NCBI GenBank assembly: GCA_964591855.1 | Contig: CAZQAZ010000002.1 | Location: 36,851-100,850, forward strand | Source: Candidatus Woesearchaeota archaeon | Lineage (GTDB): Archaea; Nanobdellota; Nanobdellia; CAZCWL01; CAZQAZ01 | Direction of reading: 5' to 3' | DNA length: 64,000 bases | Shown: piece after piece, positions 10,593 to 62,780 of the stretch | Layout of the letters: each line of letters opens with the position of its first letter | Numbering within the stretch: position 1 is the first letter of the stretch | Notes under the pieces: model-generated | Databases searched by the model: none | What the model saw: the letters and a program-made list of their open reading frames with translations, nothing else | What the model was told of the DNA's origin: nothing | Position numbers and translations under genes: made by a program

Positions 10593-10608
10593 AAACCTTT
10601 ATAAATAG
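10591..10608 (+). promoter_or_regulatory. BRE/TATA promoter (AAAAACC-TTTATAAATA) for the L1-L10-L12 operon
   Basis: AT-rich TATA box about 55 bp upstream of the L1 ATG. Matches the recurrent consensus seen elsewhere in this window. Confidence 0.6.
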
Positions 10609-13868: not shown

Positions 13869-14399
13869 TTACTTCTTTTTACCCCACATCTCATAGAAGA
13901 TAAGATCATGTAGGCCTCTTCTTATAGGTATTCTAGCACTTTTGGAGTAGTGGCCTATTGTCACTAGACCAATAACTTTCACATGCTTTGGTATGCCAAG
14001 TATAGTTCTTACTTTCTCAGAGTCAAAGGCACCAACCCAACAAGAACCAAGTCCCAATTCTGTAGCCATTAATAACATGTTTTCTATAGCTGCCCCACCA
14101 TCGCACAATGCATATCTATATGCCATCTCGCCATACTTTGCCTCTAGAATCTCAAGGTTGGCACAAACAGCTATAATCACAGGAGCTTTGACTATCCAGT
14201 CCTGACCAAATGCTGCTTGGGCAAGTCTTTCTTTAATGAACTTTTTCCTTACTATAATGTATCTAATCTCTTGTGAATTACCAGCTGTTGGAGCCCATCT
14301 CCCGGCATTTATGATCTTAAGAACATCGTCCTCAGAAACAGGCCTGTCATCATACTCTCTTATGGACCTTCTATTTATTACAAGGTTCTCGAAGTTCAT
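13869..14399 (-). CDS. Nitroreductase-family NAD(P)H oxidoreductase
   Basis: RRSIREYDDRPVSEDDVLKIINAGRWAPTAGNSQ nitroreductase fold signature. Confidence 0.75.
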   Translation of the reverse strand: MNFENLVINRRSIREYDDRPVSEDDVLKIINAGRWAPTAGNSQEIRYIIVRKKFIKERLAQAAFGQDWIVKAPVIIAVCANLEILEAKYGEMAYRYALCDGGAAIENMLLMATELGLGSCWVGAFDSEKVRTILGIPKHVKVIGLVTIGHYSKSARIPIRRGLHDLIFYEMWGKKK

Positions 14400-14454
14400 A
14401 AACTTTATAAATAAATGTTAGTAATAAACCTTTCTGATACAACTCTTGAATAGT

Positions 14455-14470
14455 AAAAACATTTATAAAT
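14455..14470 (+). promoter_or_regulatory. BRE/TATA promoter (AAAAACA-TTTATAAAT) for the TrmB-like regulator gene
   Basis: TATA about 31 nt upstream of the ATG at 14501, consistent with a near-leaderless transcript. Confidence 0.5.
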
Positions 14471-15317: not shown

Positions 15318-16859
15318 ATGACCAATGAAGAGCAAAGAGAGTTAGCTATAAAAGAGATAATAGATAATTTAGATAGTGTTAACTCTAAAGAAGAATTAGA
15401 AAAGTTGAAGTATAAGGTTTGTAGGAAGTACAAGGTTCCATTGATGCTCAATGCAGATATTCTATCCAGGATCAAAAACCCGTCAGATAAAGTAAAGGAG
15501 CTGCTGACCACGAAACCAATTAGAAGTTTATCTGGTGTTAGTGTCGTTGCTGTGATGACAAAACCATTCCCATGTCCCCATGGTAAATGTGTGATGTGTC
15601 CACAAGGTAAGAATGCCCCGCAAAGTTATACTGGAAAAGAACCTGCCACAATGAGAGCCATTAGTGCTAATTATGATCCCACACTCCAAGTTAAGAATAG
15701 GATAAGACAACTTGAATTAACTGGGCATCCAACTGATAAAATAGAAGTAATTGTTATGGGAGGAACTTTTACTTCTATGCCAAGAGATTACACCACGAAT
15801 TTTGTTAAGGGCATCTTTGATGGTCTGAATGGAGTAAAGGCTAGAACTCTTGAAGAAGCACACATGCTAAATGAGGAATCTAAGCACAGATGCGTTGGAT
15901 TAACTATAGAGACAAGACCTGATTATTGCTTTGAGGACGACATAAGGTATATCCTTAGCCTTGGTGCTACAAGAGTAGAGATTGGTGTGCAGTCTACTTT
16001 TGATGATGTGCTTAAGAAGATAAAGAGAGGACATACTGTGCAGGATTCCATCAAAGCAACACAACTACTGAAGGACTCTTCTTATAAAATAAACTATCAC
16101 ATGATGACGGGTCTCCCAGGATCTAACCCAAAGAAAGACCTTGAGTCATTTAAAAAAATATTTCAAGATCAAAGATTCAAGCCAGATATGATTAAGATAT
16201 ATCCTACTATGGTCATAAAAGGTACGGAGTTGTATGATATGTGGAAGAGGGGAGAATACGAGCCTTACTCTCAAGAAACTCTGATTAACTTATTGGCTGA
16301 CATAAAAAGAATAACTCCAAGATGGGTTAGAATAATGAGGATACAAAGAGACATTCCTCTCAATCAGGCTGAAGCAGGAGTTTTAAAGGGAAATATAAGA
16401 GAAATCTTAAAGACAAAAGTGAAGTGTAATTGTATAAGGTGTAGAGAAGTAGGACATAAGGATCCAAAGTTAGTTAAGGGTCTAAAGCCAAAACTTTTCG
16501 TGGAGGAGTATAGAGCATCCAACTCGAAAGAGTTTTTCATATCCTTCGAAAGCGAAGATCAAGAAGTACTCTTCGGCTTCATAAGGTTAAGAATACCTTA
16601 CAAGCCATTCATGGAGCAAATAACTAAGACTACTGGCTTAATTAGAGAGCTTCACGTGTATGGTAAAGAAGCAAGTTTAGGAAAGGAAGGGTATGTGCAA
16701 CACAAGGGCCTTGGTAGAAAACTTCTAGAGGAAGCGGAGTCCATAGCCAAGTCTGAAGGTATGGACAAGATGGTGATAATAAGTGGTGTTGGAGTTAGGC
16801 CATACTTTAAAAAGTTTGGCTATAGAAGAGATGGTCCATACATGTCAAAATCATTATAA
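15318..16859 (+). CDS. elp3: Elp3-like radical SAM/GNAT tRNA uridine-34 modification enzyme
   Basis: CPHGKCVMC (CX4CX2C) radical-SAM cluster, a C-terminal GNAT domain, and the FPCPHGKC motif typical of Elp3. Confidence 0.9.
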   Translation: MTNEEQRELAIKEIIDNLDSVNSKEELEKLKYKVCRKYKVPLMLNADILSRIKNPSDKVKELLTTKPIRSLSGVSVVAVMTKPFPCPHGKCVMCPQGKNAPQSYTGKEPATMRAISANYDPTLQVKNRIRQLELTGHPTDKIEVIVMGGTFTSMPRDYTTNFVKGIFDGLNGVKARTLEEAHMLNEESKHRCVGLTIETRPDYCFEDDIRYILSLGATRVEIGVQSTFDDVLKKIKRGHTVQDSIKATQLLKDSSYKINYHMMTGLPGSNPKKDLESFKKIFQDQRFKPDMIKIYPTMVIKGTELYDMWKRGEYEPYSQETLINLLADIKRITPRWVRIMRIQRDIPLNQAEAGVLKGNIREILKTKVKCNCIRCREVGHKDPKLVKGLKPKLFVEEYRASNSKEFFISFESEDQEVLFGFIRLRIPYKPFMEQITKTTGLIRELHVYGKEASLGKEGYVQHKGLGRKLLEEAESIAKSEGMDKMVIISGVGVRPYFKKFGYRRDGPYMSKSL

Positions 16860-17996: not shown

Positions 17997-18069
17997 AGCC
18001 CCGTCGTCTAGTGGTCAAGGATGCGGGCCTTTGGAGCCTGAGACCCCGGTTCGAATCCGGGCGGGGCTA
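17997..18069 (+). tRNA. tRNA-Gln (anticodon TTG)
   Basis: Acceptor AGCCCCG/CGGGGCT. Anticodon stem CGGGC/GCCTG with loop CTTTGGA. T-arm CCCGG-TTCGAAT-CCGGG. The D-arm pairing is imperfect in the hand fold. Confidence 0.75.
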
Positions 18070-18106
18070 TCATAATTTTTATAAAAGTTCTTATGGTGTT
18101 GAGAAC

Positions 18107-29202: not shown

Positions 29203-30048
29203 ATGATTATGAGGAAGCCTGTTGCCGCTGGGACCTTTTACCCTTCAGATGAGAAGGAACTCTTAGAAGAGATAACTTACAGTTTTACATCTAAGTTTGG
29301 GTTTGGTAGTTTAGACTCGTATGGCAAAGCTGTTGGAGCCATAGTTCCACATGCAGGTTATGTGTATTCGGGACCATGTGCATCACATGCCTATTCCTCC
29401 CTTAAGAAAGATATTAACACAGTAGTTATCTTTGGAACCAATCACACAGGGCTTGGGGAGAGCATTGCGCTATCCGATGAGGTGTGGATGACACCCTTAG
29501 GAAAGGTCAAGCCGGACACTTTGTTCATAGAAGGGCTTAAGAAAGAAGGATTTAAGGTTGACAACACAGCCCACAAGTTTGAGCATTCAATAGAGGTGCA
29601 ATTACCTTTCCTTCAGTTTAAGTACAAGAACTTTTTGATTGTACCTATCTGTGTTTCACACAGAGCAAGCTTAGATGAAGTAAAGAAGCTTGCTAAAGCT
29701 GTGATAAAGCTTAGCAATTCAAGAACTATTTACTTAGCGTCTTCGGACTTCACACATTATGGTTATAATTATGGCTTTCTTCCTTTTGTAGGAAGCAGAG
29801 AAGAAGTTAGAACACAACTTTACAACCTTGATAAGAGAGCAATATTTGCTATAGAGAATCTTGACACAAAAACATTTCTTAACATCGCAAACCAAACAAC
29901 CATATGTGGTACAAATGCTATAGTAACCATGATAGAATTGGCCAAAATCAAAAAGCTAAAGCCAAGACTATTGCAATATTACACATCTGGGGATCTGCTT
30001 GGTGATTATTCTAATGCGGTTGGTTATGCGGCCATAGTTTTTGAGTAG
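29203..30048 (+). CDS. MEMO1-family protein (AmmeMemoRadiSam system protein B-like)
   Basis: RKPVAAGTFYP...AIVPHAGYVYSG MEMO1 motifs. Confidence 0.8.
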   Translation: MIMRKPVAAGTFYPSDEKELLEEITYSFTSKFGFGSLDSYGKAVGAIVPHAGYVYSGPCASHAYSSLKKDINTVVIFGTNHTGLGESIALSDEVWMTPLGKVKPDTLFIEGLKKEGFKVDNTAHKFEHSIEVQLPFLQFKYKNFLIVPICVSHRASLDEVKKLAKAVIKLSNSRTIYLASSDFTHYGYNYGFLPFVGSREEVRTQLYNLDKRAIFAIENLDTKTFLNIANQTTICGTNAIVTMIELAKIKKLKPRLLQYYTSGDLLGDYSNAVGYAAIVFE

Positions 30049-30056
30049 GTGAGTGT

Positions 30057-30302
30057 ATGGAGACAATTATATGTAACACAAAGCTTAAACAGCTTAGAGG
30101 TCTTATGTTTAGATTCAAAAAAGTTAGAGCTGTCTTCCCGGCAATACCTGTCCACACTTGGTTTGTCTTCTACCCAATAAAGTTAAAGTGGCTAGACAAA
30201 AACAAGAATTTAATCAAGGAAGAAATAGCAAAACCCTTCTCACTTAGGGTCTTCCACCCCCCAAAGAACGCATCCCATCTAATCGAGGAACCTCCTAATT
30301 AA
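30057..30302 (+). CDS. DUF192/COG1430-like small protein
   Basis: LRGLMFR and WFVFYPIKLKWLD motifs resemble DUF192. The match is weak. Confidence 0.4.
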   Translation: METIICNTKLKQLRGLMFRFKKVRAVFPAIPVHTWFVFYPIKLKWLDKNKNLIKEEIAKPFSLRVFHPPKNASHLIEEPPN

Positions 30303-30664
30303 CTGCAGGTAGATGCTGAGCAGTTTAGTCGACAAGATATTCCCGAAGGGTCCGTTAGTCTACATATTGTTAACTCTTTACATGTCATAGATTTACCACC
30401 GACAGTTACGGGCTCTGTACAGAAACTTATACCTACAGGTATACAATCACATTCCCCATCTTCATCATCATCTACTAATGATGTTATTAGCTCTTGGTCT
30501 TTGGCGCATACATTCTTACAGTGTGCTATTGCTTGAGCTGAAGATATACCTGCACCACCACCTTTTTGTGCGGATGTGAAGAATAGAAGTATAGCAGCAA
30601 GAGTAATAACTGCTAACGCCAAGACAATTATAAACTCAATTGGAATGGATACCCCTTTTTTCAA
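30299..30664 (-). CDS. Class III signal peptide (type IV pilin-like) cysteine-rich protein, paralog 1
   Basis: Pilin-like N-terminus KKG/VSIPIEFIIVLALAVITLAAILLFF followed by HCKNVCAKDQE...CKELTICRLTDPSGISC. The track ORF extends to 30742 (TTG) and overlaps the upstream gene, so start is placed at the in-frame TTG giving MKKGV. Confidence 0.6.
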   Translation of the reverse strand: MKKGVSIPIEFIIVLALAVITLAAILLFFTSAQKGGGAGISSAQAIAHCKNVCAKDQELITSLVDDDEDGECDCIPVGISFCTEPVTVGGKSMTCKELTICRLTDPSGISCRLNCSASTCS

Positions 30665-30705
30665 GTTACCACCTAAGTCTAAGAGACATTTGTTCTTTTT
30701 AAGCT

Positions 30706-31107
30706 TTAAGTTTGGCCAGACTGTCCACAAGAGGCCACACAAGTTCCTCCAAAGTTGTCTACTAGTTTACATGTTGTAATTTCATAGCATGGCGTCTTTT
30801 TGCCTTCAATGTAATAATGTCCATTACAGAACTTTGATGCAAGATTACCATACTCCTTACTACTATCTATACATCCTTCGTATCTAAGCTCCCCAGAATC
30901 TAATCTTTCGGTAAGATTTATCCCAGCAGGTAGAGCAGATCTGTCTTGCATACATAAGTTCAAACAAAAGGAAGTAGCCTTAATTGAAGAAGTTCCACTT
31001 TCTCCTTTAGCAGATTTTGAGATAAGCATAACGGCTGCTGCTAAGACCATTAGACCTATCCCAACTGCTACTAGAAAATTCATCATAGCACTTCCTTTCT
31101 TTGGCAT
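30706..31107 (-). CDS. Class III signal peptide (type IV pilin-like) cysteine-rich protein, paralog 2
   Basis: MPKKG/SAMMNFLVAVGIGLMVLAAAV followed by FCLNLCMQDRS...CYEITTCKLVDNFGGTC. Confidence 0.7.
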   Translation of the reverse strand: MPKKGSAMMNFLVAVGIGLMVLAAAVMLISKSAKGESGTSSIKATSFCLNLCMQDRSALPAGINLTERLDSGELRYEGCIDSSKEYGNLASKFCNGHYYIEGKKTPCYEITTCKLVDNFGGTCVASCGQSGQT

Positions 31108-31145
31108 AATTATCTAAAGAATGCTGAGTATATAAACTTTACAAT

Positions 31146-31706
31146 CTAACAGTTCACCCATGAGGCTAAGCAGCCCTCTTTTGGCAATTTACAGCATGCG
31201 CCAATGTTTAAGCATTTTTGTTTGTTAAGGATAGTGCTGTGGTAGTCTGGTCCTATGTAATTCAATTTACATAGTCTCTCCATTTTTCTTGTACCAACTT
31301 CACATGTATCACCTATACAACTAGGTATTCCACCATCTAATACACATGCAATTTCACATGCTTTTTTCATATCAACAGTTAGATTCGTAATCTCACAAGT
31401 CTCACCAAATGAATCCTTGATTACACAGCTTGTTAGGTCAAAGCATGTTACAGTTTCTCCACCTATTCTAAACTTAAGTTTCGCGAACTCTGATTCTTGA
31501 GACGTAACGCATACACCTTCTATGCTAACACTATCTAACCTCGAGTCGTTAAGACATGCAGCTTCACACATCTTTATAGCAGTGGTCCTTGAGACAGTTC
31601 CTATCCCAAGCAGTCCTACATTCCTAAGCATGATAAGAGCGACCAATATAACAGCTACTATTATAACAATTGTTATAAGCATGGTGAATTGTATTCCTCT
31701 TTTCAT
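31146..31706 (-). CDS. Class III signal peptide (type IV pilin-like) cysteine-rich protein, paralog 3 (two Cys modules)
   Basis: MKRG/IQFTMLITIVIIVAV. Module A is KMCEAACLNDS...TCFDLTSCVIKDSFGETC. Module B is KACEIACVLDGG...CCKLPKEGCLASWVNC. The track start 31715 (MVFM) lies 9 nt upstream. Confidence 0.7.
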   Translation of the reverse strand: MKRGIQFTMLITIVIIVAVILVALIMLRNVGLLGIGTVSRTTAIKMCEAACLNDSRLDSVSIEGVCVTSQESEFAKLKFRIGGETVTCFDLTSCVIKDSFGETCEITNLTVDMKKACEIACVLDGGIPSCIGDTCEVGTRKMERLCKLNYIGPDYHSTILNKQKCLNIGACCKLPKEGCLASWVNC

Positions 31707-32230
31707 GAACACCAACTCTTACTAAAGTATTTCCCATCTCTTATACACTTCTTCCCACCAACCGTCTCGCAGTCTGTTTTCAAAACAGTCCAAAGCTCAC
31801 ATAGCTTTGGGAACCTATCAGGTTCTTGGTCTGAGAGAAGACCATAACTTCCACCGTCTATCTCGCACGCCTTCTGACATGTTTTAATCTTGCTGAATGT
31901 AATGGGAGATACAGCACAGATGCCATACTCTGTTGACATCCTACACTCTGTTAAGTTGTAACAATTAACTTTTCCCATACCTTCCACATTTAGGTATGTG
32001 TGAATAAAAGAATAGTCATCACTATATGCACATGAGCCTTCTAGGTTAACGGCTCCATGTATAGAGTCCTCTGAACATAGATCATCGCATTTTGATATCG
32101 CACTAAGTTGTGTTATTGTTGCTGCACTTGGCTTCGTAAGGGATCCAGATAAATAAAGACCAACGAGAAGAACCATAACCCCCACGGCGACTGCTAGCAA
32201 AAAGCTAAATCCTGCTTGCAAAGCTTTCAT
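31703..32230 (-). CDS. Class III signal peptide (type IV pilin-like) cysteine-rich protein, paralog 4
   Basis: MKALQAG/FSFLLAVAVGVMVLLV followed by KCDDLCSEDS...NCYNLTECRMSTEYGIC...CQKACEIDGG. Confidence 0.7.
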   Translation of the reverse strand: MKALQAGFSFLLAVAVGVMVLLVGLYLSGSLTKPSAATITQLSAISKCDDLCSEDSIHGAVNLEGSCAYSDDYSFIHTYLNVEGMGKVNCYNLTECRMSTEYGICAVSPITFSKIKTCQKACEIDGGSYGLLSDQEPDRFPKLCELWTVLKTDCETVGGKKCIRDGKYFSKSWCS

Positions 32231-32257
32231 ATCAAATCTAAGGCTTTTGCAGTTTAA

Positions 32258-33913
32258 TTAGTTTTTCCTTACAACAACTGCTACTCCACTATCAAAGTCC
32301 ATTATCTCCTTTGGACTAAGTAAAGCATCTCCATTACCAATGTACTCTCCTTTCTCGTCTACTATTGCAACTTGATCCCCAGCTAGGAAGCTGCCTACGT
32401 CCTTAACAAACTTACAAAATACACTCTTCCCTTTCTTAACAAAGGGTACAGCCTCCTCATCTATTTTAACGTAGTAATCTTTGGCCAACTTGAATATGTC
32501 CCTCATACCTTCGTCCCCGAATACTATCCTTCCATCACCAGGTCTTATGGTTGCGTACACTCCCCCTTTCTTTAAGATTCTCCTTATCCTTCCAGTCTTT
32601 CTGCTCTTTTCAATCACGGCTCCTTTCAAGACTTTCTTACCTATGCCTTTCCCAAATTGAAAGTCCACAAGCTTTTCGATTCTTTTCATGTCGCTGAATT
32701 CTTTCTTGGAGAATTTGAATACATTTTCTCCTCCAAGCATGTTGAATGGAAACACTTCTTTGAAAGAAGGATTCACTTTAGAACCTACTCTCTCTTTGTA
32801 AAGTCTCAAGGCAACCTTAACATCAGGTCTTAGCTTTGTTTCCATTCCCAAGAAATGAGGTGCCTTTTTCTTCTTTAAACTTACAAACTCCTCCATGAAC
32901 TTACCATACTTTTTAAGTAAATGAATGTATGCAGAGTAAATGTCTGCATGGAGCCTTGCCCTATTTACTAGAAACTCAAAGAATCTCCCACCTTTTATAG
33001 CAACCCTTATCTTCCTTATCTCATCCAATGTAACATTCAGATTGTGTCTTGCAATTAATTCTTCTGTCATCTCAGATGGTGATCTTCCTTTACAGACATC
33101 GCATGTACATGGCAATTCATGCATTTCCTTAAGCTCATTAATGTCTATAATCTTTTCAATAGTCATGTATGCGCCCCTGCTTGCATACAAAGCATATGCA
33201 GCTGAATCAAATATGTCAACACCCATTGCTACAAGAAGAGCGAATATCTGTGGATTGCCTGCACCAAAAGCATGAATTGGTATGTTCTGTGGCAAGCTCA
33301 TTTTGCAAGTCATTATTATGTCTACAAGGTCTTTGAAGTTGTAGTTTTCCATAAGGGGAACTATCCCACCTATTGCTGCTATGTCCCCATATACCTTAGA
33401 ACAAGCTTTCTTTCTTAGGTCTAAGAACTTGCCTCCTTGAATAGGCTGACACAGTAACCTATCTTCTTTCATTTCCTTAGCAGCTTCTATCCTTTTAAAG
33501 GTCTCTTCCAACTTTCTTTTGGCTGTAGTGTAATCATCGTCAGGGAATGTGAATACGTCTAAAGGAGTTATTATATCAGATCTTATCTTCTTTTGAAATT
33601 CAAGGGTTTCTTCATTTGTTATGCGTGCATCTCCAATAGAATACATTTGGAATGTTCCAGAATCCGTATATATTGGCTTATTCCACCTGAAGAACTTATG
33701 TAGTCCTTTCTTTTCTATCTCTTTTCTTGATTTGGAGCTCTTGATGATGTAAGAGTTAGTGATTATCAAGTCAAAGTCCTTCAAGTCTTTGATTGGGACT
33801 GTCATCTTGTTGGGGTTTACAACTACGGCAATAGTAGGTGTAGTTATCTTTTTGCCTCTTATGTTCAGCTCTCCAACTCTTGCTAATCCATCCTTAGCTT
33901 TAATCTGAAACAT
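32258..33913 (-). CDS. tgtA: Archaeosine tRNA-guanine transglycosylase (ArcTGT) with C-terminal PUA domain
   Basis: Catalytic YTDSGTFQ and PLDVF motifs. Zinc site CTCDVCKG. C-terminal PUA domain (AIVDEKGEYIGNG). Confidence 0.85.
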   Translation of the reverse strand: MFQIKAKDGLARVGELNIRGKKITTPTIAVVVNPNKMTVPIKDLKDFDLIITNSYIIKSSKSRKEIEKKGLHKFFRWNKPIYTDSGTFQMYSIGDARITNEETLEFQKKIRSDIITPLDVFTFPDDDYTTAKRKLEETFKRIEAAKEMKEDRLLCQPIQGGKFLDLRKKACSKVYGDIAAIGGIVPLMENYNFKDLVDIIMTCKMSLPQNIPIHAFGAGNPQIFALLVAMGVDIFDSAAYALYASRGAYMTIEKIIDINELKEMHELPCTCDVCKGRSPSEMTEELIARHNLNVTLDEIRKIRVAIKGGRFFEFLVNRARLHADIYSAYIHLLKKYGKFMEEFVSLKKKKAPHFLGMETKLRPDVKVALRLYKERVGSKVNPSFKEVFPFNMLGGENVFKFSKKEFSDMKRIEKLVDFQFGKGIGKKVLKGAVIEKSRKTGRIRRILKKGGVYATIRPGDGRIVFGDEGMRDIFKLAKDYYVKIDEEAVPFVKKGKSVFCKFVKDVGSFLAGDQVAIVDEKGEYIGNGDALLSPKEIMDFDSGVAVVVRKN

Positions 33914-33934
33914 AAAAATAAAGATTATACATAG

Positions 33935-33944
33935 TTTTATAAAT
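33935..33944. promoter_or_regulatory. Near-palindromic TATA box (TTTTATAAAT) shared by divergent tgtA and the radical-SAM gene
   Basis: Centred at about 33939.5, which is the midpoint between the two divergent start codons (33913 and 33965), 22-31 nt from each. Confidence 0.5.
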
Positions 33945-33964
33945 GCTTCTAGTGTAGTGCTTTT

Positions 33965-35251
33965 ATGGCAACGATAATACTCTCTTCAGGTAAGTGTAGA
34001 TGGGGAAAGTGTGTATTCTGTGGATGGGGTAAGTTAGTTGCAGATAGGGATGAGAATAGAGTTAAGCGTGACTTCCTTAGGAAGCTTTCTAACATTAAAG
34101 GCGAAGATACACTCTCCATATTTGCTTCTGGATCTTTTTTGGACGATTTACAATTCTCCCCAGAACTGAGAAAGTGGATTGTAGAGAAATTAAAGGAGAA
34201 AGGCTTTAAGAACCTAACTATAGAATCTAGGCCTGAGTTCATAACCAAAGAGAAACTTGAAGAGTTTAAGGGATTAAACCTCACAGTTGCTATTGGGTTA
34301 GAAGTTGCAGATGATGAGGTTCTTAAGAAGTTAAAGAAAGGGATAACCCTAAAAGACTTTGAGAGAGCAGCAAAAATAATACACGATTCTGGAGCCAAGC
34401 TTAGGGTTTACTTGCTTGTAAATCCCCCATTTGTGGATGATCCAAAAGAGTCTTTTAGGAAATCTGTTGAGTACGCTAAAAAGTTTGCGGATTCAATAGT
34501 CGCTATAAATTGCTATCCTCACTCTAAGTCAGAGTTGTTTGACATGTGGGTAAGGGGTGAGTGGAGACCTTTAGACGAGGAGGAGTTTAAAGAAGTGACG
34601 AAGGGTTATGATGTGGAGCTAGACTTCAGCAATTATAATTTCATCCCGAAGTTTCCTAAAGATAAACAAGAGAGGATAGTAGGTGTCTCTAAGGATACTT
34701 TACTTCACCCATATTATGAAGTTTGGCAGGATTATTTTCAGAGATTTTACAAGGTTCCAAAGGGTAAGAGATTTGCCCTTTTCTTACCATGTTCTTACAT
34801 TAAGCCTTACAGAAGATCCCCCACACACAGAGCTATCCTGAGAAAGCTACTAAAGCTTCCAACATACAAACAAATACATCAGATTATGATCTCATCACCT
34901 GGAGTTATACCAAGGGAGTTTGAGAACTACTATCCATTTAACTCATATGAGTGGAACGAGAAAGACGAGACAGAAGAGATAAAGAAACTTTACATAGACG
35001 TTAATAAAGAAAGGATTAAGAAGTATTTGCGAAGGCACAAATATGAGAAAGTATTCTCATATTTGAAGCCAGACTCAGAATCTTATAAGGCTCTTAAAGA
35101 AGCATGTGATGAGCTTGGGATAAACCTAATAAATCTTGTGGACGAGGAGAAGTACTTAGAACTTAAAGATAGAATCAAGGCAAGAATTTTAACACATGAA
35201 AGTTTGTTGGAATCGATGTGTAATAAGCTCTTGGAAGAAACGAAGAGTTAA
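33965..35251 (+). CDS. Elp3-like radical SAM protein (CX4CX2C), candidate archaeosine-pathway RaSEA-like enzyme
   Basis: N-terminal SSGKCRWGKCVFCGWGK parallels the Elp3 CPHGKCVMC motif. Divergently adjacent to tgtA. Pathway assignment is inference. Confidence 0.5.
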   Translation: MATIILSSGKCRWGKCVFCGWGKLVADRDENRVKRDFLRKLSNIKGEDTLSIFASGSFLDDLQFSPELRKWIVEKLKEKGFKNLTIESRPEFITKEKLEEFKGLNLTVAIGLEVADDEVLKKLKKGITLKDFERAAKIIHDSGAKLRVYLLVNPPFVDDPKESFRKSVEYAKKFADSIVAINCYPHSKSELFDMWVRGEWRPLDEEEFKEVTKGYDVELDFSNYNFIPKFPKDKQERIVGVSKDTLLHPYYEVWQDYFQRFYKVPKGKRFALFLPCSYIKPYRRSPTHRAILRKLLKLPTYKQIHQIMISSPGVIPREFENYYPFNSYEWNEKDETEEIKKLYIDVNKERIKKYLRRHKYEKVFSYLKPDSESYKALKEACDELGINLINLVDEEKYLELKDRIKARILTHESLLESMCNKLLEETKS

Positions 35252-35259
35252 AATGAAAG

Positions 35260-38200
35260 TTAACACTGTAGCCATGAAGCTATGCAGTTGTATTCTGGGA
35301 GCTTACAGCAGTAGCCGCTTGCCTTACACTTCTCTAGGTTGTCTTGATTTGTTTGGAAGGTTGGCCCTATCTTGTTAAGCTCACAAACTGTAGGGGTTGG
35401 ACTTTCACCCTCTTCGAAGTTCCACACGTCACTTCCACAGCTATTCAAGCTCCCACAAGTGACAGGCTCTCCACCATCTTTCAAACAAGCCTCCACACAA
35501 GCTTTTCCAAAATCCGTTGAATCCCTGCTTATGTAACAATCACCCAAACTGCAGGTTAGCACTTGATCACAATATACAGTTGTTCCTTCGACATTGAAAC
35601 TTAAGCTTGCAAAGTCTGAACTATTAAAGTAACACACCCCATTGATGTTAACAAACTCTTTGTTTGTGTCATTCATACAAGCTTCCTCACACATCCTCTG
35701 AATCTCAGGATGTGTGGATATTATCTTCTCCACATTTGTATGTTTGATTAATGTGTTACAATCGTACACGTTATTGGATCCAAGATCGTTAGGGAGTATA
35801 TCACCTTTTGTATCCAGTAGACACACATTTCCTTCCATCTTGTTATTGTTGAAAGTCACAGGAGTATCAAACACAAACCCATATACATTGTTCACGAAGT
35901 TGTTACTGTCAAACACACCACTGCATTCGCTACATAGCACACCATAGTAATTAGAGTAGAATGTATTACCTACCACGTTTACATTTCCACCTATAGCACT
36001 TATGCCAGAGTCTGAGTTCGAGAATGAAGATGATTTGATATTTCCAACACCAGAGACTCTGACATAATTTAACCCAGTTATATCGGAGTCTTCGATTGTT
36101 ATATTACCATAAGATTCAATCTTAAAGTCCTTATCTGCATAATGGATTTTAACCCCCTTCAGCGTGAGGTTTCCATAGTTCACCAAACTACATGGAGATG
36201 TACAGTTGATGTACAAGTTAACATTCTCTAAAGTAAGATTTCCATGCACAGTTGTATTCTTAAGGAGCACAACACCTAAGTTCTTAACATTACAGTTGTC
36301 GGATTTCTCAACTATCCAATCTTTGTACGTTGAAGGATAGCACCTATTCTCTTCGAGAACAGCAATAATCTTTTTTGGAGAATCAAATCTAACTTTAAGT
36401 GTGGTGTAGTTATAATGTCTCCAGTAATTTAAGACCTGAGCACCTGTTACGTTGACTGTGTAATCTCCCACATCAATTAAGTTAAAGTCCTTGTCGAGAT
36501 AATACGCCTGTCCACACCATGTTTTAACTGGCGAAGAAATGTATCCTGCATCACATTCTAAAATCCTTGTGGTTGGATAGGGTCTTATCTTATTTCCATT
36601 TGTGTCTTTAATTTCTATCTCTATTATGCTTGTTGATGCAATTAAACCTTTAGTATTGCTATCAGGCAAGAGTGTGTTTTTCGAACTCAAGCTATTAAAG
36701 AAAGCTTCGATATCACTCCCAGATATGTCTGAGTTGACGAGCATTATTAAGAATGAACCTCCTTTTAAAGTGTTCCCTTCTATGTCAACATTGTTTTCCG
36801 AAGTAAGTCTTATAGGATTGTTATAGTACTTGTAGTCCTTTACGGTTACAGAGTTGTGTTTAATGGAACCTGAGGAGTTGGATACAGAGATCCATCCAAC
36901 ATTCATATCATTTGATGTTAAGTTTATTGTAGAGTTTGTTATTGCTAAACCAATTGATTGATCTACATCATTGTTGCTAAACTCCACCGTTGAGTTGTAA
37001 GAGTAGAGAGGATAGACTACACCAACTATGTTGCTCTCATTAATCTTAGCTTTTGAGTTAAGCACATAAAATCCATAGTATGTTTTGTAACTTCTACCGC
37101 CAGAGAATGTGAAGTTGGTGTTTGATATGTTCACACCCTTTTCATCGGATATGTAAACACCGCCATACATTCTCTTATATGGACCCGACATGAATCTATT
37201 CTTATAGAATGTGACATTCTTGTTATTTATGAGGTAGACCTCAAATATGTAACTTGATGTATTTGTGTGGAAGGTGTTATTTGTTATGTTGATGTATGAG
37301 TTTGTTGAATAGATCCCCCTCGCTCCGAAAAATGTGGAGTTGGAGACAGTTATGTTAGAGCCTCTTGCGAAGAGTCCATAATAACTCTTGTCCACCACAT
37401 TTTTAAGTGTCAAGTTAGACTCAACCGAAACAACACTTACTCCCTTGTTGTTGAAGAAAGCGTCCTTAATTTCCCCACTTGAGTTGAAGTAGTAAAGAAG
37501 CTTATTGACCTTACCAAAATCTCCAAATGATCCATAAAAGTCTTGCTTGGTGTTGAGATTGTATAGAAGTATCTTAACATTGTCTGCTTTGTTACCCCTT
37601 CCATATACTTTGTTGGTGTTGTGGATTCCTAACTTATAGTCGTATGAGAACGAGTTACCGAAGAATAATGCTTCTCCGTAATTGTAGACGAAGGAATATG
37701 CATGATCCCATGTGTTACTAATAAACCTTGTCCCTACAGCATAGTTTTTAACAGGGATGTATGCGTTTGTGAATACATTCTTTAATAGAACAGTGGGCTC
37801 CACTATGTTTAAAGCCCTCCTTCCAAAGAAAGTGTTTCCAACGAGTTTAATCTTCTCGCCCACATCAAAGTCTTTGTCTAGTTCTATGTTATTCCCTTTT
37901 AGAACGATATGATTACTAAGTGACAGTTGGCTGGTTTTGATACTGTTTCCTCTTATCACAGCCTTACTTGTTCTCACATCTAACTCTGAGTTGTGAAGTA
38001 TTGATTTTTGGATGTTCAATGAGGATCCTTCTAAAGCAGTTATGTATGCCTTACTAACAAACGAGCTGGCTATTAGTATTTGACCACCCTGGTTAGCTTG
38101 TATGGTCTTTGAGTTTCCATTAAGGTAAGAGTTTATTAAAACAAGCGCTCCACCGTCCTTCACCACAATAGGATACTTTAAGTCTATGTCTTTACCATAA

Positions 38201-39273
38201 CAAACCTCCACGTCTTTAATCTCCCAAGTTCTATCTTCTGGTATTCTACAATTGGATATGTCGTACACTCTATATTCGTTGTTTGTGTAGTTTGCATCGC
38301 CTTGTGTGGAGTTTACCACAAGTCTCAATGGAAGAATAGAACCCATATTGAAAGCATCGTATTTTGTGTTGAGCATTATAGTGCCTGCAGTCCCAACTGG
38401 GAGTGTTCCTTTTGTATACTCCAGAAGCTTTTGGTTTCTTTTGTTGAACAAGGTTAAGTTATAGTCCTCAGCGTCTACGAGTCCAAGATTATAAACTGAA
38501 GTCTGAAGAGTTCCTTCTAGAGGAGTGTAGTATAACACGTATGGCTTAATTTCTGCTTGGGAACCCATATCAAATTTAATTGATATGGTATTCGAATTAA
38601 AGAGATGTGAGAAGTCATAAGGTTCAGAATCATTTGAGGCACCATTCTCTATAATAGCTTCGTATGTTCCATCGGCTCCAAAGTCTACTCTTATTTTCCC
38701 AGAGTAGCTTGTTGTCAAGTTTGCGAAGTAGATGACAGCTCCTTGTGGTAAAGTAATATGTACTACGTCCCCTGGATTAATAGTGTTTCCCTCATTAAAA
38801 GTGTTGGTTACGTTGATCTCATTAAGAGTGAAGTTAAACTCAGCACCAAGTATTGTTTGGTCTGGAAGATAAACGAGTGAACAGTCTTGTGGACACGTTT
38901 CTTCTGTTTCATTCCCATTACATATTCCATCTCCACAGTATGCCCCAACACATGTTCTCTTGGATACGACACAAGTACGTCCAGAACTATCGGTCAATGT
39001 ACATTTAACGTAGTTATAACAGTCCTTCGAACAGAAGTTTGGAGCCAGACCTTGGCTACAGAACCCCCTATCAGATGTAACGGTTCTGACGATATTATTG
39101 TCCTCTTCACATAACTCCCTACATTCTTTCTCAAGGCTAACTATACTTTGAACTTGCTCCGTTCCACCTTTAGATCTGATAACCAAGAAGTATACTGCTG
39201 CAAGAACGGCAACTGCTATTATTACAACAGCTAGAATCTCTACGCTGCTAGCCCTCTTGTAAGCTTTGTACAT
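35260..39273 (-). CDS. Giant (1337 aa) class III signal peptide surface protein/adhesin candidate: pilin-like N-terminus, Cys module A, long N-x-S/T-rich beta-helix-like repeat region, C-terminal Cys modules A and B
   Basis: N-terminus MYKAYKRA/SSVEILAVVIIAVAVLAAV. Then EKECRELCEEDNN...CSQGLAPNFCS. Central region is rich in N, S, T and Y with dozens of NxS/T sequons (NITNNTFHTNTSSY...). C-terminus MCEEACMNDTN...YCDQVLTCSLGDC and KACVEACLKDGG...CCKLPEYNCIASWLQC. Confidence 0.75.
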   Translation of the reverse strand: MYKAYKRASSVEILAVVIIAVAVLAAVYFLVIRSKGGTEQVQSIVSLEKECRELCEEDNNIVRTVTSDRGFCSQGLAPNFCSKDCYNYVKCTLTDSSGRTCVVSKRTCVGAYCGDGICNGNETEETCPQDCSLVYLPDQTILGAEFNFTLNEINVTNTFNEGNTINPGDVVHITLPQGAVIYFANLTTSYSGKIRVDFGADGTYEAIIENGASNDSEPYDFSHLFNSNTISIKFDMGSQAEIKPYVLYYTPLEGTLQTSVYNLGLVDAEDYNLTLFNKRNQKLLEYTKGTLPVGTAGTIMLNTKYDAFNMGSILPLRLVVNSTQGDANYTNNEYRVYDISNCRIPEDRTWEIKDVEVCYGKDIDLKYPIVVKDGGALVLINSYLNGNSKTIQANQGGQILIASSFVSKAYITALEGSSLNIQKSILHNSELDVRTSKAVIRGNSIKTSQLSLSNHIVLKGNNIELDKDFDVGEKIKLVGNTFFGRRALNIVEPTVLLKNVFTNAYIPVKNYAVGTRFISNTWDHAYSFVYNYGEALFFGNSFSYDYKLGIHNTNKVYGRGNKADNVKILLYNLNTKQDFYGSFGDFGKVNKLLYYFNSSGEIKDAFFNNKGVSVVSVESNLTLKNVVDKSYYGLFARGSNITVSNSTFFGARGIYSTNSYINITNNTFHTNTSSYIFEVYLINNKNVTFYKNRFMSGPYKRMYGGVYISDEKGVNISNTNFTFSGGRSYKTYYGFYVLNSKAKINESNIVGVVYPLYSYNSTVEFSNNDVDQSIGLAITNSTINLTSNDMNVGWISVSNSSGSIKHNSVTVKDYKYYNNPIRLTSENNVDIEGNTLKGGSFLIMLVNSDISGSDIEAFFNSLSSKNTLLPDSNTKGLIASTSIIEIEIKDTNGNKIRPYPTTRILECDAGYISSPVKTWCGQAYYLDKDFNLIDVGDYTVNVTGAQVLNYWRHYNYTTLKVRFDSPKKIIAVLEENRCYPSTYKDWIVEKSDNCNVKNLGVVLLKNTTVHGNLTLENVNLYINCTSPCSLVNYGNLTLKGVKIHYADKDFKIESYGNITIEDSDITGLNYVRVSGVGNIKSSSFSNSDSGISAIGGNVNVVGNTFYSNYYGVLCSECSGVFDSNNFVNNVYGFVFDTPVTFNNNKMEGNVCLLDTKGDILPNDLGSNNVYDCNTLIKHTNVEKIISTHPEIQRMCEEACMNDTNKEFVNINGVCYFNSSDFASLSFNVEGTTVYCDQVLTCSLGDCYISRDSTDFGKACVEACLKDGGEPVTCGSLNSCGSDVWNFEEGESPTPTVCELNKIGPTFQTNQDNLEKCKASGYCCKLPEYNCIASWLQC

Positions 39274-39315
39274 GAAAAATTAAAGAAGTAATACTTAATA
39301 AAACTAATTAAGCAA

Positions 39316-39666
39316 CTAGCAGCTATTAGAGGTCACAACACAAGTTCTCCCATCTTCAAATGTTAGAACACATTTAGTTATGTCGTAACATCTCAAGGTT
39401 CTGCCTGCTATCTTAAATGAACCGCTACAGAAGTTTGGAGCTAGACCCTGTCCACAAGACCCATCTTCATATATCTCTCCACTAATAAGAAGCTGGTTGT
39501 CCTTAGCACAGGCAGCTTCACATGAGGACTTAGCATCGGATAGGGTTATAGACTCCCCAGATTGTGCTTTCCCTTTGAAAACTAGGTAAAGTCCAGCTAC
39601 CGCCACCATAGCACTTAATATGATAACGACTATCAAGTTTATCGAACTTTGTCCTCTCATCCACAT
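39316..39666 (-). CDS. Class III signal peptide (type IV pilin-like) cysteine-rich protein, paralog 6
   Basis: MWMRG/QSSINLIVVIILSAMVAVAG followed by SSCEAACAKDNQ...CGQGLAPNFCSG...CYDITKCVLTFEDGRTCVV. Closely matches the N-module of the giant protein. Confidence 0.7.
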   Translation of the reverse strand: MWMRGQSSINLIVVIILSAMVAVAGLYLVFKGKAQSGESITLSDAKSSCEAACAKDNQLLISGEIYEDGSCGQGLAPNFCSGSFKIAGRTLRCYDITKCVLTFEDGRTCVVTSNSC

Positions 39667-40076
39667 CTCACTCCTATAGCTTCTAATCTATCAACGACAC
39701 CAAGCTGTTCGGCATAATTACATATCTCTTCTTCATCGTAGCTTGAGAGCTCACCAAAGTAACATATCCCCCAAGGTGTTTCAGCTGAACATTGGACTAT
39801 GTCATAACAGTGTTTGGTCTTGCCACTTAACTTGAACTCAAGCTTTCCAAAATCTGACTTTGGATTTGTATAGCATTGTCCATCTATGCTTGTTATGTTT
39901 TTGTATTGGTCAAGCAGACAAAAATCGCTGCATTTTGATTTTAAAGATGCTCTTGAGAGGGAGCCGAGATTGGAGATGTAACCTTTATTGAATATGAAGA
40001 TGACTATTAGTATAACTGAGAGAGCAAGTAAAGCTGCTATGACATAGTTTATTCCCAGTGAAACACCTTTTTTCAT
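39657..40076 (-). CDS. Class III signal peptide (type IV pilin-like) cysteine-rich protein, paralog 7
   Basis: MKKG/VSLGINYVIAALLALSVILIV followed by KCSDFCLLDQ...HCYDIVQCSAETPWGIC. Confidence 0.7.
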   Translation of the reverse strand: MKKGVSLGINYVIAALLALSVILIVIFIFNKGYISNLGSLSRASLKSKCSDFCLLDQYKNITSIDGQCYTNPKSDFGKLEFKLSGKTKHCYDIVQCSAETPWGICYFGELSSYDEEEICNYAEQLGVVDRLEAIGVRCG

Positions 40077-40118
40077 AAATAATAAATGATTTATTTGTTA
40101 ATAAAGTTTTATTTTAGT

Positions 40119-40706
40119 ATGAACTACTCCGATGCTACAAGGAGAACTTATGATAAGGTGGCAGACCTTTGGAAGGTTTATAGAAACAAACCATTTAAGG
40201 AAGTTGTGGATTTCATGTCCAATGTGAAGAACTCGTATGTGTTGGATTTGGGATGTGGAACTGGAAGAAACTTAAAGGCAATCAACAAGACAAACTTCAT
40301 AGTTGAAGCAGATTACTCCTTGGGTATGTTAAAGCTTAATCCTCACCCCGTAAAGGTTTTGTGTGATGCAAGAAAACTCCCTTTTGCCGAGAGAAGTTTT
40401 GATGTGGTCTTAGCAGTATCAGTTCTACACCATCTTCCAATAGATGGTGTAAAGAGGGCAGCGAGTGAGGTAAGAAGAGTATTAAAAAACAAAGGTAGGG
40501 CTTTACTGACCTTTTGGAAGAAAGAAGGAGTTGAAGAAGGGAAACCGGTAAATGTGCCTTGGAAGAAAGAAGGTGTGAGTTACGACAGATATTACTACTT
40601 CTACTCCAAGGAAACCATAAAGACTATAATACAAGACATTTTAAGAATTGATAAGATATACATAGATGAGAAAGATATGAACTACATTGTGGAGGTAAGA
40701 AAATGA
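40119..40706 (+). CDS. Class I SAM-dependent methyltransferase
   Basis: VLDLGCGTGRN motif I. Start taken at the second in-frame Met of the track ORF (40086..40706); the exact start is uncertain. Confidence 0.7.
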   Translation: MNYSDATRRTYDKVADLWKVYRNKPFKEVVDFMSNVKNSYVLDLGCGTGRNLKAINKTNFIVEADYSLGMLKLNPHPVKVLCDARKLPFAERSFDVVLAVSVLHHLPIDGVKRAASEVRRVLKNKGRALLTFWKKEGVEEGKPVNVPWKKEGVSYDRYYYFYSKETIKTIIQDILRIDKIYIDEKDMNYIVEVRK

Positions 40707-42025
40707 TAGAAGTTTGGGCAGTTGGAGGGTACTCTGAGATTGGAAGGAACATGACTGGTATTAACATAGATGGAGAGGTAGTAATTCTTGACATGGGTTT
40801 GCATATGGATAAGATTGTAGCTTATTCTGGAGATGATGTGCACTTGCTTCCTTATGATAAAATGCTTGAAATGGATATGATTGCTGATGATAGAGAGTTC
40901 AGGAAAGAGTGGGGACAAAAAGTTAAAGCCATAATATGTGGACATGCACATCTAGATCATGTTGGGGCAATTCCAGTTATGGCTAAGAATTATAATGCAC
41001 CCATAATTGTTACACCATTCACTGCAGAGGTTATTAAAGGTTTATTTGAAAAAAGAAGGCTTAGAAACAAATTAATTCCAATGAACGCTGGCCAGACACG
41101 TAAGATCTCGGACAACATAGAATTAGAATTTGTACACATAACTCACTCTACTCTCCAGACTGTAGTTGTAGTACTTAAGACGAAGTATGGAAACATAGTG
41201 TATGCCAATGATTACAAGTTAGATAACCATCCTGTGATTGGAAAGAAGCCAAATTACAAAAGACTAAAAGAATTGGGAAAGGAAGGAGTTGTACTCTTTA
41301 TTTGTGACACTACAAGAATAGAACTTGAAGGGCACACATACTCAGAGCAAGTTGTTAAAGCAATGCTTGAGGACCTGTTTGAGTTCCAAGACACAGAGGG
41401 TAAGGCAGTTTTTGTCACGACTTTCGCTTCTCATATAGCAAGAATATCCACTTTGGTCTCCATAGCTAAAAAGCTTGGGAGAACACCAGTTATATTGGGT
41501 AGAAGTATGGCAAGTTATGTTGGTGCAGCAGAAAGGCTGGGTTTGTACAGACCAAAGTGTGAAGTTTTGGGTTACAAAAAACAAATTGCTAAGAAGCTTA
41601 GGGAGATAAACAGAAACAGAGAGAAGTATTTTGTGATCCTAACAGGAAATCAAGGTGAACCTGATGCAGTGTTATCTAGAGTAGCAAATGATAAGTTTGA
41701 TTTCAGATTTAATCCAGGAGACATAGTTATATTCTCGACCAGTACGATACCAACAGCTACTTGTCAAGCTAATCGTGAAACCTTGGAGAGCAAATTGAAG
41801 GAAAAGAAGGTTAGAGTATTTAAGGATGTACACGTTAGTGGGCATGCATCTAGAGAGGACTTAAGAGACATGTTAGAAATGCTTAAACCAAAACACTTTA
41901 TACCAACACATGGAGGTATAGAGAAGATAACAAAGGCTGCGGAGCTTGCTGTAGAGGAAGGATACATCATTGGTAGAACAGTCCATATTCTACAAAATGG
42001 ATCGAGGTTGATCCTAAATGTCTAG
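40703..42025 (+). CDS. rnj: Archaeal RNase J (beta-CASP metallo-beta-lactamase ribonuclease)
   Basis: HAHLDHVGAIP MBL motif and beta-CASP region. About 440 aa, typical of aRNase J. Confidence 0.8.
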   Translation: MIEVWAVGGYSEIGRNMTGINIDGEVVILDMGLHMDKIVAYSGDDVHLLPYDKMLEMDMIADDREFRKEWGQKVKAIICGHAHLDHVGAIPVMAKNYNAPIIVTPFTAEVIKGLFEKRRLRNKLIPMNAGQTRKISDNIELEFVHITHSTLQTVVVVLKTKYGNIVYANDYKLDNHPVIGKKPNYKRLKELGKEGVVLFICDTTRIELEGHTYSEQVVKAMLEDLFEFQDTEGKAVFVTTFASHIARISTLVSIAKKLGRTPVILGRSMASYVGAAERLGLYRPKCEVLGYKKQIAKKLREINRNREKYFVILTGNQGEPDAVLSRVANDKFDFRFNPGDIVIFSTSTIPTATCQANRETLESKLKEKKVRVFKDVHVSGHASREDLRDMLEMLKPKHFIPTHGGIEKITKAAELAVEEGYIIGRTVHILQNGSRLILNV

Positions 42026-45879: not shown

Positions 45880-46476
45880 AGCTTTGTTAATTAATTCTAA
45901 GTCTCTTTTTTCATTTTTCTCATCAAGAGCACTCATTCTAAGTATGAAGTCAAGCTTATCTAACTCTTTCTTAATCTCGTCGTAATTGGATAGGGACTTT
46001 AGTCTCTCCAACTCTTCTTTTTTCTTCCTCATGATCTCTTGATGCCTCAACAAAACTTTTTCTCTATCCTCTTCTGTTAAGTGAAGAGTATAGGGAAAAT
46101 CTGGATGTAAAAGAACATTCAAATCGAATCCAGCAGGAATTAGTTTTACAAGCTTTTCTTCTTGTCTCCCAAGTAGAGAGTTCATACCATTGTCTAAAAT
46201 CATTCTAGATGCAGCTAATCTCACTACACATTCGAACAGAAATTCTTTGTCTTCATCATCTGTTACTCCTTCCTCTGTTAGTTCCTTCAGAATCTCTCTT
46301 GACTTCTCTTTTATTTTTAGTAATTCGCTTAGATCTTTTTCTTTGAGCTCTTTTATTATGGCTTGAACCTTTGGGTGGTGTTCATATTTCTCCTTTAGCT
46401 CCTTAAATGAGCTTATCATGTTAAGAAATTCTCTTCCAAATTTAAAAAGGTTTTTAAACCATTGCGAAATTTTCAT
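45850..46476 (-). CDS. Hypothetical coiled-coil-rich protein
   Basis: 208-aa ORF with no recognisable family. Its 3' end overlaps the L24e 3' end by about 30 nt on the opposite strand. Confidence 0.35.
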
Positions 46477-61165: not shown

Positions 61166-61237
61166 GCGCCAATAGTCTAGTGGTTAGGATGCGGGCTTGC
61201 CAAGCCTGTGACCCGGGTTCGAATCCCGGTTGGCGCA
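61166..61237 (+). tRNA. tRNA-Gly (anticodon GCC)
   Basis: Acceptor GCGCCAA/TTGGCGC. Anticodon stem CGGGC/GCCTG with loop TTGCCAA. T-arm CCCGG-GTTCGAATC-CCGG. TATA-like TTTTATAAT/TAATAAAT upstream. Confidence 0.85.
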
Positions 61238-61288
61238 CTTCTCGTTACATTTATAAACTCTTCTTACTTCTTTTTCTATTGTGAGAGC

Positions 61289-62489: not shown

Positions 62490-62759
62490 TCACTTAGACT
62501 TCCTTAACTTATCTACTCTTATTTTCTTTCCACATTTCTCACACTCGAACTTGAAAGGGACTTTGAACTCTCCCCTTACTTCTCCCTTGTGTCCACAGTA
62601 TGGGCAAGTGTACTTGCCCTGCATTTCATTGCTATTCTTGTAGCACCACAGGAATACAGAACCGGTTGGCTCTTTAGAACCTCTTTTAGTTAGAACTTGC
62701 CTTGTAAAGAACTTAACTTCTGATATGTCCTCCGGTTCTCTTAGTGCCATACTTGCCAT
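62490..62759 (-). CDS. Small zinc-ribbon protein (C4), unknown function
   Basis: CPYCGHKGEV...CEKCGKK zinc ribbon. Start placed at MASMALREPEDI, about 20 nt downstream of a TATA box; the track ORF extends to 62810. Confidence 0.4.
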   Translation of the reverse strand: MASMALREPEDISEVKFFTRQVLTKRGSKEPTGSVFLWCYKNSNEMQGKYTCPYCGHKGEVRGEFKVPFKFECEKCGKKIRVDKLRKSK

Positions 62760-62770
62760 AAAATAAAAAC

Positions 62771-62780
62771 AAATATAAAT
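62771..62780. promoter_or_regulatory. TATA box (AAATATAAAT) in the divergent promoter region between the zinc-ribbon gene and the deoxyhypusine synthase gene
   Basis: Lies 16-25 nt from the divergent start codons at 62759 and 62801. Confidence 0.45.

Follow-up and report, generated by a model that had tools for sequence, protein, structure and literature searches.

We analysed a 64,000-nucleotide stretch of DNA from a Candidatus Woesearchaeota archaeon (assembly GCA_964591855.1, contig CAZQAZ010000002.1, positions 36,851 to 100,850 of the forward strand), here called the window, which has a G+C content of 38%, holds 69 genes and is 7.4% non-coding. Our subject is a divergent gene pair within it: tgtA, on the minus strand, for the archaeosine tRNA-guanine transglycosylase ArcTGT, and a plus-strand gene whose product is, by homology, a fusion of a RaSEA-type radical S-adenosylmethionine (SAM) domain with the catalytic core of archaeosine synthase ArcS. 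The original prediction, made from the sequence alone, had taken the plus-strand product for an Elp3-like enzyme, and had both genes transcribed from one palindromic TATA box inside an array of pilin-like genes. The start coordinates, 33913 (minus) and 33965 (plus), and the 51-nt spacer enclosed by them agree between the list of open reading frames (ORFs) and the sequence.

The archaeosine gene pair

32258-33913, minus strand: tgtA, ArcTGT (archaeosine tRNA-guanine transglycosylase), 551 aa, with TGT, TGT_C2 and PUA domains
33965-35251, plus strand: fusion of a RaSEA-type radical SAM domain and the ArcS catalytic core (DUF5591), 428 aa, matching PF04055 and PF17884
33995-34021, plus strand: Cys cluster C11-x4-C16-x2-C19 (CRWGKCVFC), presumed [4Fe-4S]/SAM-binding motif
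34787-34828, plus strand: ArcS signature PC-x3-KPY-x2-S-x2-H, here PCSYIKPYRRSPTH, aa 275-288, from the translation

The tgtA protein scores 404.6 bits against TIGR00432, above the curated equivalog cut-off of 350, and with its Pfam TGT, TGT_C2 and PUA domains it has the full-length architecture of ArcTGT from Pyrococcus horikoshii and other Euryarchaeota; no difference from these was detected at the domain level, and no split gene form was seen. The earlier call of this gene as ArcTGT therefore stands, and the product is, judged by its family matches, a genuine ArcTGT.

The best family match of the partner protein is RaSEA (TIGR01210; 132.2 bits, residues 3-202), against 49.9 bits for Elp3 (TIGR01211), and residues 229-419 form DUF5591, the C1 catalytic core of archaeosine synthase ArcS (PF17884; 71.8 bits, cut-off 26). 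Conservation among 34 homologs is 90% or more for the cysteines C11, C16 and C19, which align to the cluster motif of Elp3; within the ArcS signature, the definition of which was taken from published work on ArcS, P275, C276, K280, P281, Y282 and S285 are invariant in the same homologs, and for H288 conservation is again 90% or more. Each of the 34 aligned homologs matches the RaSEA model as well as the ArcS model, and RaSEA gives the best E-value of any family. An AlphaFold2 (AF2) model of the protein (pLDDT 94, pTM 0.88) has two domains, the N-terminal half resembling radical SAM enzymes (Elp3, queuine lyase) and the C-terminal half resembling AF0587, while sequence and fold searches of the PDB returned only Elp3, queuine lyase and AF0587, and no solved RaSEA or full ArcS. 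The protein database yielded 434 matches to the fusion at E<1e-5, with source names mainly from DPANN and Altiarchaeota, and among the 120 matches listed (about 410-485 aa) nearly all carry both domains; 276 fusion loci were found in species-representative genomes. The NCBI name of the protein is only 'DUF5591 domain-containing protein', and a literature search for a RaSEA-ArcS fusion found no description, a prior mention in the original RaSEA paper (Yokogawa 2019) being possible.

Archaeosine arises on tRNA by a route in which ArcTGT puts preQ0 at G15, ArcS adds lysine and RaSEA turns preQ0-Lys into archaeosine (PMC11298593). ArcS of Thermococcus kodakarensis is active only when complexed with RaSEA, the two forming an obligate complex (PMC11298593), which makes their fusion plausible. 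With ArcTGT, an ArcS core and a RaSEA domain together in the pair, the two genes are predicted to encode all three tRNA-level steps of archaeosine formation, with two interacting activities fused, and we propose that the RaSEA-DUF5591 fusion is a single-chain archaeosine synthase. Its modules are the same catalytic ones as in the ArcS/RaSEA system, a DUF5591/C1 core with PCx3KPYx2Sx2H and a RaSEA-type radical SAM domain, but they lie in one 428-aa polypeptide instead of a two-subunit complex. The DUF5591 core without a TGT-like domain also recalls the stand-alone ArcS C1 proteins (phage/virus ArcS2; AF0587, PDB 2q07), which, however, have no radical SAM fusion and whose phage versions act on DNA.

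Several observations weigh against this assignment: (i) the RaSEA score lies below the curated cut-off of 212, the match covering model positions 17-229 of 313; (ii) the score against ArcS (archaeosine synthase alpha, NF040592), 66.8 bits over model positions 256-413 of 575, lies below the cut-off of 440; and (iii) the protein lacks the TGT-like N, C2 and PUA domains of ArcS, and is thus not a canonical ArcS. The low scores can be explained by the partial coverage of each model. That the 428-aa fusion is self-sufficient, performing both lysine transfer and radical cleavage without the tRNA-binding modules of ArcS (TGT-like N, C2 and PUA), is possible, but we lean slightly against it; it might rely on hand-over from ArcTGT, which keeps C2 and PUA, and such a dependence would explain why tgtA is kept as a divergent, co-expressed neighbour in all 23 related loci described below. 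The fusion of the RaSEA domain and the ArcS core is more noteworthy than the promoter arrangement.

The TATA box between the two genes

33914-33964: divergent intergenic spacer, 51 nt, with an A-to-A distance between the start codons of 52 bp
33936-33943: TATA box TTTATAAA, a perfect palindrome, identified by consensus match, enrichment and inverted-repeat search
33911-33917, minus strand: tgtA start region TTTTATG, mirroring 33961-33967 as an inverted repeat
33961-33967, plus strand: fusion gene start region TTTTATG, without a Shine-Dalgarno motif

The promoter consensus of this genome is TTTATAAA, which is palindromic in its own right; exact copies number 10 in the window against 4.4 expected, a count that none of 100 shuffles reached, and 8 of the 10 lie in the 7.4% that is non-coding. 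A good A/T box ends at -21 to -24 of the ATG in 15 window genes, the background rate being 1%. None of these 15 has a Shine-Dalgarno motif, as opposed to 28 of the 54 remaining genes (GGTG/GGAGG type), and all 15 have a pyrimidine at -1, as opposed to 26 of the 54. The combination of box distance, missing Shine-Dalgarno motif and pyrimidine at -1 argues that leaderless transcripts are the local rule, in that the first genes of transcription units look leaderless, initiating at the A of the ATG. Upstream of the window boxes, at -3 to -5, lies a weak A-rich signal resembling the recognition element (BRE) of transcription factor B (TFB), with A at -3 in 13 of 14 promoters; the local BRE-like consensus was built from these 14 promoters only.

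The 10-mer TTTTATAAAT at 33935-33944, on which the original prediction was based, contains the core TTTATAAA at 33936-33943, which spans -29 to -22 of the plus ATG and -30 to -23 of the minus ATG. This core is the sole all-A/T 8-mer in the spacer with at least 6 of 8 consensus matches, the other A/T runs being AAAAATAAA, which adjoins the tgtA ATG, and the 6-nt ATTATA at 33924-33929. Hence the claim of a single, central TATA element between the genes was borne out, the core being a perfect palindrome 22-23 nt from both ATGs. When the spacer was shuffled 200,000 times, 0.25% of the shuffles had an exact TTTATAAA no more than 2 nt from the centre, and the presence of the box there exceeds chance.

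The starts themselves have the features of leaderless genes. A box is centred about 26 nt upstream of each, neither gene has a Shine-Dalgarno motif, and both follow the Py(-1)/Pu(+1) pattern, with T at -1 and A at +1, an initiator-like context for leaderless mRNA. The start codons agree with the N-termini of homologs, and for the fusion gene an earlier start is excluded by a stop at 33950-33952, no in-frame start lying upstream of 33965. Each flank of the box matches 2 of the 3 best positions of the local A-rich BRE-like consensus, which is compatible with firing in both directions but is not proof of it. An inverted-repeat search returned only the TATA palindrome and the mirrored TTTTATG start regions, with no larger operator-like palindrome. 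Scans around the pair for sigma-70 promoters and intrinsic terminators, which are irrelevant for an archaeon, gave no more matches than shuffles, and an Rfam scan of 30000-41000 found no RNA family. An antisense ORF at 33949-34398 was dismissed as a shadow of the conserved fusion gene.

Such a layout has precedents. Warman et al. found that divergent transcription start sites (TSSs) of T. kodakarensis mostly flank a shared TATA (TTATAAA) at 52 bp from each other, a spacing of 36 bp being less frequent (10.1101/2020.01.31.928960), and Grünberger et al. described in Pyrococcus furiosus one TATA transcribed both ways, in vitro too, with TSSs 49 bp apart (PMC6640164), a bidirectionality ascribed to symmetric binding of the TATA-binding protein (TBP) and to a BRE-TATA-BRE layout (PMC6640164). 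The window pair resembles these Thermococcales shared-TATA promoters (T. kodakarensis TSS maps; P. furiosus PF1918), in which starts 49-52 bp apart have a near-palindromic TATA (TTATAAA or TTTAAA) at their midpoint, although its own 52 bp is counted with start codons standing in for TSSs, whereas the Thermococcales distances are between mapped TSSs. It departs from them in its BRE, present on both sides in the Thermococcales class and weakly recognisable here, and in its transcripts: many of the Thermococcales partners are non-coding antisense RNAs with 5' leaders, whereas the window pair, in a DPANN archaeon, is predicted to yield leaderless mRNAs from two functionally linked genes. By this analogy, membership of the window pair in the Thermococcales-type bidirectional shared-TATA class is well supported, the arrangement being, on that comparison, real, ordinary and of known architecture. 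The second Thermococcales class, of about 36 bp, is matched by pairs 34-38 bp apart in the window and in relatives.

Within the window, starts 34-37 bp apart occur in the divergent pairs 21982/22016, 53314/53351 and 60083/60120, which have two crossed TATA-like boxes, each about 22 nt from its own ATG, and agree with the minor '36 bp' class of T. kodakarensis. The gaps of the divergent pairs 40076/40086 and 46476/46480 are only 9 and 3 nt, and there a box lies inside the coding sequence of the partner at the usual distance from the ATG (TTAATAAA at 40098-40105; TTTTTAAA at 46451-46458). An exact TTTATAAA at 10598-10605 sits in an 83-nt gap between divergent genes, at -21, the leaderless distance, for 10577 (minus) and about 56 nt upstream of 10661 (plus), which has a GGAGG Shine-Dalgarno motif; this box may be common to one leaderless and one leadered transcript. 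A 101-nt divergent spacer holds two exact copies, at 14404-14411 and 14462-14469. Just 5 nt separate the former from the minus ATG at 14399, which suggests that either this start is mis-called or the box serves another transcript. Further exact copies lie just 3' of tRNA-Gln (17997-18069), at 18078-18085, and of tRNA-Gly (61166-61238), at 61250-61257, in both cases in the promoter position for the next protein-coding gene.

The original prediction had also pointed to a similar shared TATA at 62771-62780. The box itself, which we place at 62773-62780, is well placed for the plus gene at 62801 (-22), but its distance from the ATG annotated for the minus gene, at 62759, is only about 13 nt. The minus gene is an 89-aa Zn-ribbon-like ORF (62490-62759, weak DUF7560 match) with a second in-frame ATG at codon 4, position 62750; with the start moved there, the box would be at -23 and the A-to-A distance 51 bp. 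This candidate therefore holds for the plus gene, and for the minus gene only if translation starts at 62750.

Relatives of the locus and the pilin-like genes

We compared 80 related loci, 52 of which have at least 5.5 kb of upstream flank. A tgtA gene is found no more than 6 kb from the fusion gene in 23 of the 80, in every case upstream of it and divergently oriented. A-to-A distances were obtained for seven further loci without a called gene between the pair, and boxes were examined in six of them (L059 being left out):

L057, L031 and L001/L082: A-to-A 35, 37 and 38 bp; two crossed boxes
L021 and L074: A-to-A 53 and 53 bp; one central box, as in the window
L081: A-to-A 80 bp; two back-to-back boxes
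L059: A-to-A 278 bp

Boxes lie at about -21 to -25 of each ATG in all six loci examined. The 113 divergent pairs in the fetched DPANN loci, a small sample with crude gene calling, have modest spacing peaks at 37-40 and 49-54 bp.

The pair is flanked on both sides by minus-strand genes of one family:

30299-32230, minus strand: left block, four pilin-like Cys-rich paralogs, separate transcription units
35260-40076, minus strand: right block, three pilin-like paralogs, including a 1337-aa member

Both blocks, into which the pair had been said to split a pilin-like array, are real: the seven flanking ORFs are Cys-rich paralogs of a single family, with N-termini in which [KR]-G is followed by a hydrophobic helix, and they have no Pfam or NCBIfam match. 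A box, TAATTAAA, ends at -23 of the ATG of the pilin-like gene at 32230. In the 1337-aa member (35260-39273) the family domain occurs at each end, and residues 1193-1337 are 39% identical to the gene at 31146-31706.

Family members also flank the pair in the nearest relatives, at 3617-4336 and 7237-7966 in L001 and at 2870-3217 and 6261-6833 in L081. The number of pilin-like genes per side is one in L081 and two in L001/L082, and in the window it is four and three. The window, L001/L082 and L081 have a common gene order (enolase, S2, Memo, a small ORF, pilin-like, tgtA, fusion, pilin-like, methyltransferase, RNase J, GluRS), with a protein identity of only 50-60%. The pilin-like flanks are found in these nearest relatives only, and the more distant DPANN genomes with the adjacent pair are without them. 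A composition profile gives a uniform G+C of 0.36-0.40 across the region. Synteny and uniform composition together favour a conserved backbone pair around which a lineage-specific pilin-like family has expanded.

A probable shared promoter for archaeosine synthesis

The reading that we consider fairly probable is that the two genes form a compact archaeosine (G+15) cassette of a DPANN-type archaeon, in which ArcTGT and the fusion are expressed as divergent leaderless mRNAs from one shared TATA box, the two genes being a backbone pair. By homology, ArcTGT is the enzyme that swaps G15 of tRNA for preQ0 as step 1, and in the fusion the DUF5591/ArcS-C1 core is the lysine-adding domain, acting on the preQ0 nitrile, and the RaSEA-type radical SAM domain the one for cleavage of preQ0-Lys to archaeosine. 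TBP on the palindromic TTTATAAA at 33936-33943 would serve both genes, TFB on either side of the box would set the direction, and initiation at or beside the A of each ATG, 52 bp apart, would yield leaderless mRNAs. Co-expression of step 1 with steps 2 and 3 would follow from the shared box.

For the promoter part of this reading, the proposal of one TBP site serving two leaderless transcripts draws on the distance of the box from both starts, the T at -1, the missing Shine-Dalgarno motifs and the 52-bp precedent, but not on the symmetry that had been emphasised, and several points qualify it: (i) palindromy is a property of the consensus and is not special to 33936-33943; (ii) the 'exact midpoint' is not independent evidence, since in a 51-nt spacer the correct position for one gene is automatically that for the other; (iii) the BRE-like flanks are mediocre, with T at -4 on the plus side and G at -3 on the minus side, so that one direction could be weak; and (iv) the nearest relatives, L001/L082 and L081, have a pair of boxes, with A-to-A distances of 38 bp and 80 bp. 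With relatives using two crossed or two separate boxes, it is the divergent leaderless layout that is conserved, and not the sharing of one box. We propose that one shared box is one of several interchangeable spacings rather than a selected feature. These points leave some room for an alternative in which the box fires one way only or very unequally and the other gene is driven by a different, weaker element, either ATTATA at 33924-33929, which would give the fusion transcript a leader of about 10 nt, or a promoter inside the coding sequence of the neighbour. Besides the imperfect BRE-like flanks, which differ between the two sides, and the separate boxes of relatives for the same pair, this alternative can draw on the second A/T hexamer in the spacer and on the promoters inside neighbouring genes that occur in this genome (40098-40105 and 46451-46458). 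However, ATTATA is short and not at the usual distance from either ATG, the spacer has no other all-A/T 8-mer with at least 6 of 8 consensus matches, the palindromic box is at the usual distance from both ATGs, which are preceded by T at -1 and lack a Shine-Dalgarno motif, and bidirectional firing of a shared box has been documented experimentally in other archaea (10.1101/2020.01.31.928960; PMC6640164). We therefore regard unequal firing as unlikely, though it is the most serious of the alternatives.

Two further alternatives concern the genes rather than the box. Recent insertion of the tgtA/fusion pair into an existing pilin-like array was one of two histories left open by the original prediction, and it could be argued from the way the pair interrupts an array of paralogs all on the minus strand. 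We consider it very unlikely, since the window, L001/L082 and L081 have one gene order even at a protein identity of only 50-60%, the pair is adjacent without pilin-like flanks in more distant DPANN genomes, G+C is uniform, and the pair is not bounded by repeats or mobile-element genes; growth of the pilin-like island around a conserved pair is favoured. The other alternative, that the radical SAM gene encodes an Elp3-type or other unrelated enzyme and is next to tgtA by coincidence, is more improbable still. The radical SAM domains of Elp3 (a tRNA U34 cm5 radical SAM/GNAT enzyme) belong to a related subfamily and are the closest solved structures by sequence and by fold, over residues 83-212, and the CX4CX2C motif of the fusion aligns to the Elp3 cluster motif. 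Against this, RaSEA scores 132 bits and Elp3 only 50 (Elp3 cut-off 350), the C-terminal half is DUF5591 with the invariant ArcS motif, the ELP3_N, Radical_SAM_C and GNAT domains are absent, and all 23 loci with tgtA within 6 kb have it upstream and divergent. A complete Elp3 is, moreover, encoded elsewhere in the window:

15318-16859, plus strand: true Elp3 of the genome, 513 aa, with ELP3_N, Radical_SAM, Radical_SAM_C and GNAT domains

The label 'Elp3-like' is thus apt for the fold and the cysteine motif only, and was otherwise mistaken. The Elp3 gene itself has a box, TTTTTATA, at -23 and looks leaderless.

To conclude, the window suggests that the divergent spacing rules of 52 bp and about 36 bp, so far mapped in Thermococcales and Haloferax, extend to a small DPANN genome and shape the distances between its genes. 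Where mRNAs are leaderless, the spacing of start codons reads out promoter geometry, and such a read-out, confirmatory as it is here, is of use when start codons and transcription units of uncultured archaea are annotated. The annotation of the plus-strand gene is corrected from 'Elp3-like' or 'DUF5591 protein' to archaeosine synthase fusion. The natural joining of RaSEA to the ArcS core is independent support for the obligate ArcS-RaSEA partnership that has been reported, and it points to a minimal archaeosine synthase, which could be easier to study than the two-subunit complex.

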